A program made the position numbers and the translations under genes. The notes under the pieces were generated by a model, which was not told where the DNA came from, searched no databases, and saw nothing but the letters and a program-made list of their open reading frames with translations. DNA of 64,000 nt from Malacoraja senta (taxonomy: Eukaryota): assembly GCA_038087875.1 (NCBI GenBank), contig CM075989.1, forward strand, positions 22,570,001-22,634,000. The letters run 5' to 3'. Each line of letters begins with the position of its first letter. The stretch's first letter is position 1. Shown here one piece after another: positions 8,702-58,910 of this stretch.

Positions 8702-8897
8702 CTTTCTTCTTCTTTTTGTGTCCATCTTGTTACAAATGTTGACCCCGCTGTCATCGTCCGTCCTGAAAACGACGCAAGCTTCCGGCGACAATCAGTGGGA
8801 GCCATCACTTGTCGCAATAGATGATGGTGGTAGCAGAATTAGCTCGGGATACTTCCAGTTTCCAGCCCCGCGACGTGGATGCTTCTGCTATGGGGCC
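8702..8897 (-). mobile_element. 196-bp non-autonomous retroposon with 5' HDV-like ribozyme and (AAG)n tail
   Basis: Perfect 11-bp TSD ATTCTGCTACT (8691-8701, 8898-8908) inside a CR1 3'UTR; tail AAAAAGAAGAAGAAAG. Confidence 0.88.
8831..8897 (-). ncRNA. HDV/CPEB3-like self-cleaving ribozyme motif
   Basis: GGCCCC-A-TAGCAGAA-GCA-TCCACGT-CGC-GGGGCT-GG-[P4]-CTAA-TTCTGCTA: P1 6 bp with G1.U, P2 8 bp, P3 with one mismatch, P1.1 CC/GG, putative catalytic C at 8842. Confidence 0.88.
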
Positions 8898-30722: not shown

Positions 30723-30776
30723 GGGGTGGGAGATTGCAACATTCACGTGGTCCGCCCTGTTTCGACTAATGCAATC
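30723..30776 (+). ncRNA. Minimal (P4-less) HDV-like ribozyme motif, 54 nt
   Basis: GGGGTGG-GA-GATTGCA-ACA-TTCACGT-GGT-CCGCCCT-G-TTTCGA-CTAA-TGCAATC: P1 7 bp with G1.U, P2 7 bp, P3 with one mismatch, putative catalytic C at 30766. Confidence 0.85.
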
Positions 30777-30865
30777 AACCTGGCGTGCACAATCAAATAA
30801 GATCAAATAGAACAAGTTGTCCGACAACCTTAGGCTGTGCACGCCACACGCAAGAAGAAGAAGAA
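30723..30865 (+). mobile_element. 143-bp non-autonomous retroposon (Vingi/Ingi-like) with 5' minimal HDV-like ribozyme
   Basis: TSD CACCTCTGACT / CACTTCTGACT (30712-30722, 30866-30876) inside a CR1; 3' end GGCTGTGCACGCCACACGC(AAG)4AA. Confidence 0.85.
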
Positions 30866-39331: not shown

Positions 39332-39737
39332 TCGAACTAATGTGAACGGGTGATTATTTGAACAATGAATAATGGATATTTATTGTCACATATGCAATTA
39401 AACATTCCAAAGTGAAATTCATAACGCATATAATGCCAGAGCCACCATGTTCGGTGCCATTTCATCAAGTTCAAAGTCCAGGCCTGGCCAAGGATAGCCG
39501 TGATGTCCTAGGCCGCTGGTCCACCGCTGTAGGCCGCGTCCGGCCCAAACACTCGGCCTCTTTGATCGGTTATTACAAAATCTGCTTTCCTCAAGTGCGT
39601 CCGTCCGAATCCTTTAGACTTGTATCATTAGTTTATGCTTCTTCTTATCGAGTCTACACACACACACACAATATTAGAAGTTGTTCAGCCAGAGCTGAAC
39701 ACCCTTGTCAGCATCTGCATACAATGGTGTCTGTCTT

Positions 39738-40195
39738 TATGCGGTCGGTCCGCATTAACCAACTTGACCTCCCGGTGGCTCAGCACTTCAACTCCCCCTC
39801 CCATTCCGTATCTGACCTCTCTGTCCTGGGTCTCCTCCATGGCCACAGCGAGCAACACCGTAAATTGGAGGAAATGCACCTCATATTCCGCTTGGGCAGT
39901 CTACATCCTGGGGGCTTGAACATTGAATTCTCCCAATTCTGCTAGCCCTTGCTGTCCCCTCCCCTTCATCAGCCATCCGGTTGTCTCCTCCACTCCCCCA
40001 GCCCTCGGGCTCCTCCTCTGCCTTTTTCCTTTTTTCCTTTCTTCTCCCCACCCCCTATCAGTCTGAAGAAGGGTTTCGGCCCGAAACGTTGCCTATTTCC
40101 TTCGCTCCATAGATGCTGCTGCACCCGCTGAGTTTCTCCAGCATTTTTGAGTACCTTCGATTTTCCAGCATCTGCAGTTCCTTCTTTAACACCTA
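39738..40195 (+). mobile_element. Penelope-like element 3' fragment with terminal hammerhead unit
   Basis: VAQHFNSPSHSVSDLSVLGL...GLNIEFSQFC*; TSD GTGTCTGTCTT (39727-39737, 40196-40206); hammerhead motif at 40063. Confidence 0.9.
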
Positions 40196-40237
40196 GTGTC
40201 TGTCTTGTCACTTCTTGTGCTTCTTGTGAGTGATGGT

Positions 40238-40289
40238 GGAAAGATTGGTGAAAACCGGGCCGCGACGTGAACGCTCTTTCCTTGACCAC
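40238..40289 (-). ncRNA. Minimal (P4-less) HDV/CPEB3-like ribozyme motif with decayed P1
   Basis: GTGGTC-AA-GGAAAGA-GCG-TTCACGT-CGC-GGCCCG-G-TTTTCA-CCAA-TCTTTCC: P2 7 bp and P3 3 bp perfect, P1 4 of 6 pairs. Confidence 0.78.
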
Positions 40290-40634
40290 AGTTCATGCTG
40301 AAATGAAGCAGCGTTTGTAAGATGTGTGTCCCAACGTTAATTTGCTGCTCGGAATTATTAGGCTGGCACCAGTACTCCGTTTGAATTCCCTATTTGCTGG
40401 GAGACAATTTATTTTCTTCTAAAAGAAGAAAAACTAATTGATTCTTTTTTCCCCTCCACATAATAGGTAATCTGTCACTGCTGAAGTGAAGAAGATTCAA
40501 AATAGAAAGCAAGATAATTAATTCCCAAATGGCAACATGGAGAGTGCTTTTTGACAAAACCCAGAAAATGGCTTTTCTTGTTGGTATAAGTTATGATTTT
40601 CCTGCTCAAGATATTGGCAACGCAGCAAATAATG

Positions 40635-51455: not shown

Positions 51456-51982
51456 TATCTGCTGTTCCTTCCTACACATGTAATTAAAGCAAACCATTTC
51501 TACCCATTTAACAATGCTCTCCATTTCTAATTTTTTACTGGAGTTTCTATTACTTATATTAATAAAGGCGATGACTCTTCCATAGACTGCGTGACAATGC
51601 AGTGTGAAGATTCACTCTAGTGAATAGGGATTCTTATCCTGTGTCACAACTCATGCAGGATTCTGAGCACATTGACTGTGGCTGTTTCGCTCATTGCTTT
51701 GACTTGCTGTTCAATCTGATGAATACAGAGCAGTCTTTCAATTTCACCTTCCTCTCTGTATCCATGTTTAAGGCGCACTTCAGACCGGAACAAATATATA
51801 TTCCCCGTGAAAGAAAGATTTCCCATTGATAAACCTAAACCTTTTAGTTCCCCGCGTTTAATTTTGCAAGATCTGAGAATAGTTCCAGCGTTCTCTCTTC
51901 GTGGAAAAGAAAGACAGGAAAGCAGCGATTTTCACTCTTGCCTCTTTGCAATCAATTCGTTGACGAGTGTAGCTGGGACATG

Positions 51983-52721
51983 GGGGGAGATGGGATCTTC
52001 CCATCTCCCCCCATGTCTGCCTTCCGCAAAGACCGCTCCCTCCGTAACTCCCTTGTCAATTCTTCCCTTCCCTCCCATACCACCCCCTCCCCTGGTACTT
52101 TCCCTTGCAACCGCAAGAGATGCAACACTTGTCCCTTCACCTCCCCCCTCTCCTCCATTCAAGGACCCAAGCAGTCGTTCCAGGTGCGACAGATGTTCAC
52201 CTGCATCTCCTCCAACCTCATCTATTGCATCCGCTGCTCTAGATGCCAGCTGATCTACATCGGTGAGACCAAGCGGAGGCTTGGCAATCGTTTCGCCGAA
52301 CACCTCCGGTCGGTCCGCAATAACCAACCTGAACTCCTGGTGGCTCAGCACTTCAACTCCCCCTCCCATTCCGTATCTGACCTCTCTGTCCTGGGTCTCC
52401 TCCATGGCCACAGCGAGCAACACCGTAAATTGGAGGAAATGCACCTCATATTCCGCTTGGGCAGTCCACATCCTGGGGGTTTGAACATTGAATTCTCCCA
52501 ATTCTGCTAGCGCTTGCTGTCCCCTCCCCTTCATCAGCCACCTGGTTGTCTCCTCCCCTCCCCCAGCCCTCGGGCTCCTCCTCCGCCTTTTTCCTTTTTT
52601 CCTTTCTTCTCCCCACCCCCTATCAGTCTGAAGAAGGGTTTCGGCCCGAAACGTTACCTGTTTCCTTCGCTCCATAGATGCTGCTGCACCCGCTGAGTTT
52701 CCCCAGCATTTTTGTGTACCT
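51983..52721 (+). mobile_element. 5'-truncated Penelope-like element with an open GIY-YIG endonuclease segment (stop at 52510) and terminal hammerhead unit
   Basis: CNRKRCNTC linker, NLIYCIRCSRCQLIYIGETKRRLGNRFAEH, GLN motif; 15-bp TSD TGTAGCTGGGACATG (51968-51982, 52722-52736); hammerhead motif at 52628. Confidence 0.93.
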
Positions 52722-58449: not shown

Positions 58450-58910
58450 CATAACGCCATAAATGATAGAAGCAGAATTAGGCCATTCGGCCCATCTAGT
58501 CAACTCTGCCATTCAATCATGGCTGTTCTATGACTTCCCCCTAACCCCATTCTCCTGCCTTCCCCCCATAAATCTTGACACCTGTACTAATCAAGAATCT
58601 ATCTATCCCCACCTTAAAAATGTCCATTGACTTGGCCTCCACAGCCCTCTGTGGCAATGAATTCCACAGATTCACCACCATTTCTTTCATCAGGAGGTGG
58701 TGAATGTGTGGAATTCATTGCCACAGACGTCTGTGGAGGCCAAGTCATTGGGTATTTTTTAAAGCATAGATTGACAGGTTCTTGATTAAAGAAGTAAAGA
58801 TATTGAAGGTTGTGGGGAGAATGGGTTTGAGAGGGAAAGATAGATCAGCCATGATATAATGGCGGAGTAGACTGGATGAGGTGAATGGCCAAATTCTGCT
58901 CCAATGACAT
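58450..58910. mobile_element. Two CR1 3' ends joined head-to-head near 58681
   Basis: Minus copy 58450-58680, plus copy 58681-58910. Confidence 0.75.

Follow-up and report, generated by a model that had tools for sequence, protein, structure and literature searches.

What kind of element begins with a sequence that looks like a self-cleaving ribozyme, how might such an element be copied, and where does its ribozyme come from? These questions are raised by the segment at 39640..40289 (minus strand) of a 64,000-nucleotide stretch of Malacoraja senta DNA (contig CM075989.1), hereafter the window. A preliminary description had read the segment as a ribozyme-headed retroelement, and this reading is supported by its membership in a repeat family, by its predicted fold and by its precise 5' end. 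The partner of the element had not been named. Sequence comparisons suggest that a Vingi-type LINE likely supplied both ends of the element, which we therefore call a mini-Vingi of family A. The window copy comprises 181 nt plus a 469-nt insertion, compared with about 175 nt in intact copies. It lies within a 10-bp target-site duplication with one mismatch, one copy of which adjoins G1 (40290..40299), while the other follows the (GAA)n tail (39630..39639).

All sequence pieces quoted for the head were found at the duplication boundary at 40289 on the minus strand. The order of the parts is P1 5' strand GTGGTC (40289-40284), J1/2 AA, P2 5' strand GGAAAGA (40281-40275), P3 GCG (40274-40272), L3 TTCACGT (40271-40265), then CGC, P1 3' strand GGCCCG (40261-40256), a linker of G plus 6 nt (40255-40249), CCAA (40248-40245) and P2 3' strand TCTTTCC (40244-40238). 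Together they are predicted to form a 52-nt HDV-like fold without P4 (40238..40289), with the cut 5' of G1 (40289) and the catalytic C at 40248. P1 forms only 4 of 6 pairs, positions 1 and 2 are broken, and the G1-U pair is gone. The two P1 mismatches reported earlier are thus real, and the copy is predicted to be inactive, as had been proposed. Behind the head, a post-ribozyme segment (40222..40236, minus strand), partly decayed in this copy, is predicted to be the 5' arm of a pairing with the 3' UTR. The Vingi-derived 3' end (39640..39720, minus strand) contains the last ORF codons with the stop codon at 39676-39674, a stem-loop (39700-39683), the 3' UTR and the (GAA)n tail. In the window copy, the 3' UTR has an expanded (TG)n, a GACTCG motif and a tail ending at 39640.

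After in silico removal of 39738-40206, the rejoined copy of 181 nt differs from the family majority by 5.8%. In the 1.94 Gb genome, there were 633 candidates for the 5' half of the element, 40 of which were scored. A 33-nt head pattern with intact P1 had 513 exact matches and a pattern for the P4-less junction 930, and the reversed controls had none, confirming that the rejoined element represents a repeat family. Scaling of exact matches by a sample of loci leads to a rough estimate of 3,300-3,600 copies, which rests on 4 and 8 of 28 loci. The sample was picked by the 3' part of the element with a pattern that mostly selects one subfamily, and comprised 30 loci with 28 distinct flanks. The head was kept in 26 of the 28 distinct copies. 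Among headed copies, the P1 5' strand read GGGGTC in 24 of 26 and the P1 3' strand GGCCCT in 17 of 26; this is the consensus P1 that had been predicted, and it pairs fully in the family majority. Every core feature was retained in only 6 of 26 headed copies, by a fixed-offset parse that counts indels as failures.

Target-site duplications, mostly of 9-15 bp, were present in 62 of 72 full-length copies. In 53 of these 62, the duplication adjoined G1, indicating a precise 5' start. The copies diverged from the majority by 3.3% on average. Divergence was 4.1% in the head and 2.9% in the body, so that the head is not better conserved, as expected for copies that decay after insertion. With target-site duplications, a simple-repeat tail and no ORF, family A has the traits of a bipartite LINE. 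We also note that in the flanks of family A, 49 of 78 copies have T and 7 of 78 have G at the base before G1, a bias that may reflect a target preference or a constraint on cleavage.

In order to assess the fold beyond a single family, we compared 12 families (3 short, 8 LINE and 1 metagenome) represented by 1-22 copies each. Family K was excluded because its P1 is truncated. Within families, pairing was 96% for P1, 99% for P2 and 97% for P3. Across the 12 families, it was 63%, 56% and 74%, respectively, and most helix positions showed 2-4 pair types, which amounts to covariation. The family A majority pairs at 6/6 positions in P1, 7/7 in P2 and 3/3 in P3 and thus has the nested double pseudoknot. 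It also keeps the G1-U pair, an L3 of the form U-Y-C-x-C-G-Y, the P1.1 C-G pair and the catalytic C that heads J4/2. Two of the 6 pairs in its P1 are G-U, and a P1 of 6 bp is normal for the HDV-like class (PMC4908430). Pseudoknot-blind folding of the intact head returned a different structure with a z score of 0.6; the heads scored 0.3-0.6 by this measure, which is uninformative.

The preliminary description had drawn attention to the linker, which was said to be the same as in the element at 30723. This holds at the level of families: the 7-nt linker without P4, which makes the fold a minimal HDV-like one, is fixed in both families A and C, whose partner LINEs sit far apart in the tree. All nine LINE-family heads that we found have linkers of 20-45 nt with a predicted P4 stem (weak in F9). 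Natural ribozymes without P4 self-cleave in vitro (PMC10879173), and from the modeled fold, intact family A heads are predicted to cut RNA at G1. In 6% of a poly(A) RNA run of a relative, the family was covered at about 70-120 reads, and 57 reads ran uncut through G1 into the upstream flank. Most copies behind these read-through reads were decayed. A pile-up of 5' ends at G1 was absent from the same 6% of the run, the library being one without 5'-end marking.

In order to identify the partner LINE, we searched with a degenerate pattern for what we take to be the reverse transcriptase (RT) motif and obtained 187 matches from about ten families. One of these, F8, matched the 3' part of the element at 20 of 25 loci. 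Over 74 nt, the two are 94.6% identical, majority to majority. The common stretch contains the last ORF codons, the stem-loop, the 3' UTR and the tail, and F8 reads as a LINE ORF C-terminus there. This identity with a Vingi-type LINE makes the element a bipartite non-autonomous LINE. Family A likely arose from a longer Vingi-type LINE by internal deletion, with the two ends kept. CR1 and L1 were considered as partner LINEs and rejected.

The assignment to Vingi draws on relatives of F8, which itself is known here solely from 5'-truncated copies. The related full-length LINEs are about 3.1 kb long and have a single ORF with endonuclease (APE) and RT domains and no RNase H match. The F1 ORF of 986 aa matched PF14529/PF03372 and PF00078 only, and family G has one frame of 1014 aa. 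This agrees with the description of Vingi as having a single APE plus RT ORF, no RNase H and a length of about 3.1 kb (PMC13708176). The tree places F8 together with families G and K (97/93); it contains no named reference, and its sole outgroup is a long-branch CR1 row. A search of the PDB returned distant L1, R2 and group II RTs only. The heads of G and K have family A's P3/L3 core. By eye, the same head as in G, K and F9 is seen at the 5' ends of Vingi-2_Gav, Vingi-4_Crp, Vingi-2_SPur and Vingi-1_BF, elements of gharial, crocodile, sea urchin and lancelet whose sequences are given in the supplement of PMC5786205.

Two sister families of mini-Vingi elements are present in the window. Family B (8702..8897, minus strand) has a P4-containing head with a 6-bp P1 and has its whole 5' part and a 3' UTR motif in common with its partner LINE F9. 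Family C (30723..30865, plus strand) has a P4-less head with a 7-bp P1 and has its 3' end in common with F7. A 5' end common to a mini-element and its own LINE is thus directly visible for the pair of B and F9. For the partners of A and C, genome patterns and walking upstream yielded no full-length F8 or F7. Patterns that excluded the linker start had one match, a point variant, and exclusion of the junction left three. An exclusion pattern on the 3' part of A had at least 78 matches, and the 30 examined were all short or truncated short copies. The upstream walk along F8 ended at residue ~166 of a 996-aa homologue, short of an F8 5' end, and the search for full-length F7 returned 11 short or interrupted family C copies. 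Ribozyme heads were also absent among the first 40 RT-motif loci, nearly all of which are 5'-truncated. Since full-length F8 and F7 were not recovered, we infer the origin of family A's head from F8, as well as the timing of P4 loss.

Several observations on these LINEs and their surroundings deserve mention in their own right. The F1 ORF is 89% identical to proteins of the teleosts Synaphobranchus and Siphateles, with the next matches at about 50%, and F9 groups closely with a sea-urchin protein in the tree, which suggests horizontal transfer of Vingi-type LINEs. Two full-length family G LINEs with open frames of 1008-1014 aa carry 4-6 tandem 26-nt units at the 5' end (L309:~390-545 and L310:~388-490). 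The unit extends from the end of the P1 5' strand through P3 and likely originated by template jumping at a short repeat common to both P1 strands. Damaged-ribozyme 5' halves of family C (L341, L347, L349-L351) lie inside a larger composite repeat with a common upstream flank and a pyrimidine-rich tract. An endogenous retroviral pol-like stretch (L317:1-1250) lies beside a truncated F8 copy. The window also contains a long near-perfect inverted repeat of CR1-type 3' sequence (58622-58753) with miRNA-like Rfam matches under the cut-off.

The sequence behind the ribozyme had been described as an ACCATCA motif in common with the element at 8897. Family A reads ACCACCAC at this position, so the ACCATCA match is partly due to a C-to-T change in the window copy; the form common to both is ACCACCA. 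The motif is the start of the predicted 5' pairing arm. For the 30 nt after the ribozyme, the predicted energy of pairing with the element's own last 40 nt was -16.7 kcal/mol, compared with -10.0 kcal/mol for cross-family combinations (means of 11 families). The own-family pairing ranked first in 6 of 11 families and among the top three in 10 of 11, and was weak in F2, F3 and I. The longest helix averaged 7.5 bp for own ends and 4.7 bp across families, and its sequence differs from family to family. The set includes LINEs in which the arms are 3 kb apart.

The body of the window copy is split by a 5'-truncated Penelope-like element (39738..40195, plus strand). As previously noted, the insert has its own exact 11-bp target-site duplication (39727..39737 and 40196..40206), which supports the conclusion that it arrived later than the mini-Vingi at this locus. 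The insert contains the C-terminal end of a GIY-YIG ORF (39739..39945, plus strand), which is 91% identical to window positions 51848-52510. This longer Penelope copy matches PF01541; the insert's own ORF fragment has no Pfam match. A putative minimal hammerhead core follows (40063..40090, plus strand; CUGAAGA, helix II, GAAA, palindromic CG, UH), according to the definition given for Penelope-like elements in PMC4209133. Its helix I is only about 2 bp by eye. The window contains nine minimal hammerhead cores, compared with 0.01 expected. The GIY-YIG ORF end and the minimal hammerhead in the terminal repeat identify the insert as Penelope-like. It is an ordinary truncated copy with nothing new relative to the elements described in PMC4209133. 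The same Penelope family also splits the 3' UTR of an F8 LINE (L307) and a family C element (L343), consistent with later Penelope activity beyond the window locus as well. Contigs of two other sequencing runs (X1, X10) span the Penelope site and have a U at the last P1 position. An empty orthologous site in these contigs was rejected as an explanation; the joints across Penelope belong to other copies of the family. Of the four runs compared, the remaining two (X3, X4) lack coverage of the head, which we do not read as its absence.

The relation of the head to the CPEB3 ribozyme had been proposed on the basis of a 19-nt block thought to equal the rodent-type core. The block is indeed present in the RF00622 (CPEB3) consensus, which is a general mammalian consensus and not rodent-specific. 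In the Rfam scan, the window copy scored 24.2 bits against RF00622 (E 0.047), under the gathering score of 35, and an intact family A copy reached 29.0 bits, also below 35. One intact family B copy exceeded the cut-off with 37.5 bits. The clearest matches came from the heads of family G, with 47-64 bits in 6 of 6 tested and a best E of 2.5e-15. The differences between these heads and RF00622 include compensatory changes in P1 and P2, and those of the best-scoring head are compensatory in P1. Matches to RF00622 were absent from the heads of F1, F3, H, I, J and C, so that G stands out as the best among about a dozen families. Compared by eye, the gharial Vingi-2_Gav and the RF00622 consensus agree at 46 of the 48 non-P4 positions that are visible, as well as in P4 pairs one to three; the same 7-bp P4 stem is found in the alligator SINE2-1_AMi, within the part that derives from Vingi. 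Family A itself is a dispersed multicopy retroelement and not a CPEB3 intron sequence.

The 19-nt block alone turned out to be weak evidence. A phage-like contig contains a complete HDV-like fold, a predicted ribozyme with the same 13-nt P3/L3 core and 24.6 bits on RF00622, and no LINE ORF in 6.3 kb. It was the only complete HDV-like fold among 50 viral-contig matches to a 15-nt core pattern. Its fold (L391 / L417:4982-5046) contains P4, with a P1 identical to that of family B and the core of CPEB3. Since it scores like the window copy, we rejected the block by itself as a sign of CPEB3 descent; the link is made instead through the sister Vingi heads. A longer 23-nt pattern matched four metagenome contigs and had no viral matches. 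On two of these contigs (L352 and L355), intact Vingi-like frames of 995-1006 aa are headed by a CPEB3-type core whose J1/2 is long and structured. The other two contigs represent a single locus (L353/L354:3489-3567), where a putative, near-identical CPEB3-type ribozyme scored 66.5 bits. The 3.5 kb downstream of it contain no Vingi ORF, and an RT-like fragment lies 2.3 kb upstream; the sequence looks eukaryotic. In prokaryote genomes, the 18-nt core had 11 matches and no full folds under a strict filter that passes 3 of 7 positive controls. A control viral contig contained a RAGATH-18 RNA (L363:246-307, 70.3 bits).

The scores of 47-64 bits in a sister LINE family and the match of the gharial element suggest that the CPEB3 ribozyme is probably a domesticated Vingi 5' end. 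We regard common descent of the Vingi heads and the CPEB3 ribozyme as probable. Traces of Vingi have been described in the human genome (PMC5753468), and the CPEB3 ribozyme is reported as absent outside mammals (PMC8233481), so that no outgroup had been available for its origin. A link between Vingi and the CPEB3 ribozyme was not found stated in the literature searched, a scope outside which most subscription papers lie.

These data can be combined in a model that we consider likely, in which the mini-Vingi derives from a Vingi-type LINE, cleavage by its P4-less head is predicted just ahead of G1, and the RNA would be copied in trans by the LINE protein. Transcription would either begin at an internal promoter or read into the element from a host promoter. 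Its predicted double pseudoknot (6-bp P1, 2-nt J1/2, 7-bp P2, 3-bp P3 and a C-N-A-A J4/2) would cleave co-transcriptionally and trim off host sequence, so that new copies would start exactly at G1. Base pairing between the post-ribozyme segment and the 3' UTR is predicted to bring the RNA ends together. By analogy with LINE biology, the Vingi APE-RT protein would bind the RNA at its 3' end, through the stem-loop and the (GAA)n tail, and integration would proceed by target-primed reverse transcription, leaving the 9-15-bp duplications that are observed. In the window copy, two P1 pairs were lost before Penelope split the element. Its head would be a member of a Vingi 5' ribozyme lineage that is likely also the source of the mammalian CPEB3 ribozyme. 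We lean, if not strongly, towards the fuller proposal that the CPEB3 ribozyme was domesticated from Vingi and that active P4-less heads of 52-53 nt, which shrank on at least two occasions in this genome, drive thousands of duplex-ringed mini-elements.

The element could have the same origin and yet a head that does not cleave; the precise 5' end would then result from transcription starting at G1, as proposed for Pr77 of L1Tc, and the P4-less head would persist as an internal promoter, as a passenger, or as a 5' structure that binds protein or blocks exonucleases. The retention of P4 in all nine LINE-family heads and the uncut read-through reads at G1 would fit this reading, and the first 77 nt of L1Tc (Pr77) are both promoter and ribozyme (PMC3383444). 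However, none of the four pairings is lost from the family majority, which also retains G1-U, L3 and the J4/2 cytosine, two families have the same fixed linker length of 7 nt, and natural P4-less ribozymes are active (PMC10879173), so that we consider a non-cleaving head unlikely, though deserving of some weight. Still less probable, in our judgment, is that the element is as described and its likeness to CPEB3 results from convergence on an HDV-like catalytic core. Convergence would account for the phage-like fold that scores 24.6 bits without a LINE, and for a best family chosen from about a dozen, six of which have heads without a match to RF00622; R2 ribozymes, too, have 21 of 27 core nucleotides in common with HDV (PMC8256844). 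It does not readily explain why the match reaches past the core into freely varying helices, with 47-64 bits and compensatory P1 and P2 differences in G, why Vingi-2_Gav agrees at 46 of 48 non-P4 positions, or why SINE2-1_AMi has the same 7-bp P4 stem (both by eye), and human DNA does contain Vingi traces (PMC5753468).

Were the element an ordinary Pol III SINE whose tail comes from Vingi and whose unrelated head resembles a ribozyme by chance, it would also be short, high in copy number and equipped with a tail common to a LINE, and the Rfam score of the window copy is under the cut-off. Yet the head has the architecture of full-length LINE 5' ends and covaries across families, and matches to tRNA, 5S or 7SL are absent in the window scan; a tRNA-headed SINE was rejected. 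This explanation is largely refuted, and we assign it a very small probability. The reading that we retain as likely is that of a mini-Vingi whose intact heads are predicted to cleave.

As a kind of element, such a mini-Vingi is known. NARTc/L1Tc, RIME/ingi, the Vingi-1_EE deletion derivatives and the R2 SIDEs combine LINE 5' and 3' ends without an ORF (PMC5786205, PMC4035085), as family A likely does, and, like it, are likely mobilized in trans. NARTc even has an HDV-like ribozyme at its exact 5' end, as predicted for family A. What distinguishes family A from these bipartite LINEs is the vertebrate Vingi partner, the P4-less head and the predicted end duplex that covaries across families; what is new is that a head without P4 occurs in a vertebrate. 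Vingi does not figure in the list of six ribozyme-bearing clades given in PMC5786205.

The drz-Mtgn-1 and theta ribozymes also have a nested double pseudoknot without P4 and a catalytic C in first place in J4/2. According to PMC10879173, nearly 99% of these P4-less ribozymes are from tailed phages, and the genomes examined in that study, those of human, mouse and protists, yielded none. In family A, by contrast, the modeled fold would head thousands of vertebrate retrotransposon copies. With the CPEB3 ribozyme (PMC8233481), family A has in common the 2-nt J1/2, the 7-bp P2, an identical P3/L3 core, the exact 19-nt block, a single Watson-Crick P1.1 pair and a G-U after P1. The CPEB3 ribozyme differs in being single-copy and intronic, with a 7-bp P1 and a P4 helix; the family A head has a 6-bp P1, no P4, a different P2 and scores of 24-29 bits, and the cut-off is passed by family G.

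The 175-nt element shows what a template for the Vingi protein likely needs, namely a 5' ribozyme, an end duplex, a 3' hairpin and a tail. These needs bear on gene-insertion tools based on Vingi (PMC13708176). Known almost entirely from phages, P4-less HDV-like ribozymes would gain a vertebrate family that offers thousands of natural variants. The Vingi heads provide outgroups for the CPEB3 ribozyme and make its origin testable by phylogeny and cleavage assay. Family A is chiefly of value as a starting point for tracing where the CPEB3 ribozyme came from and for studying minimal HDV-like ribozymes in eukaryotes.
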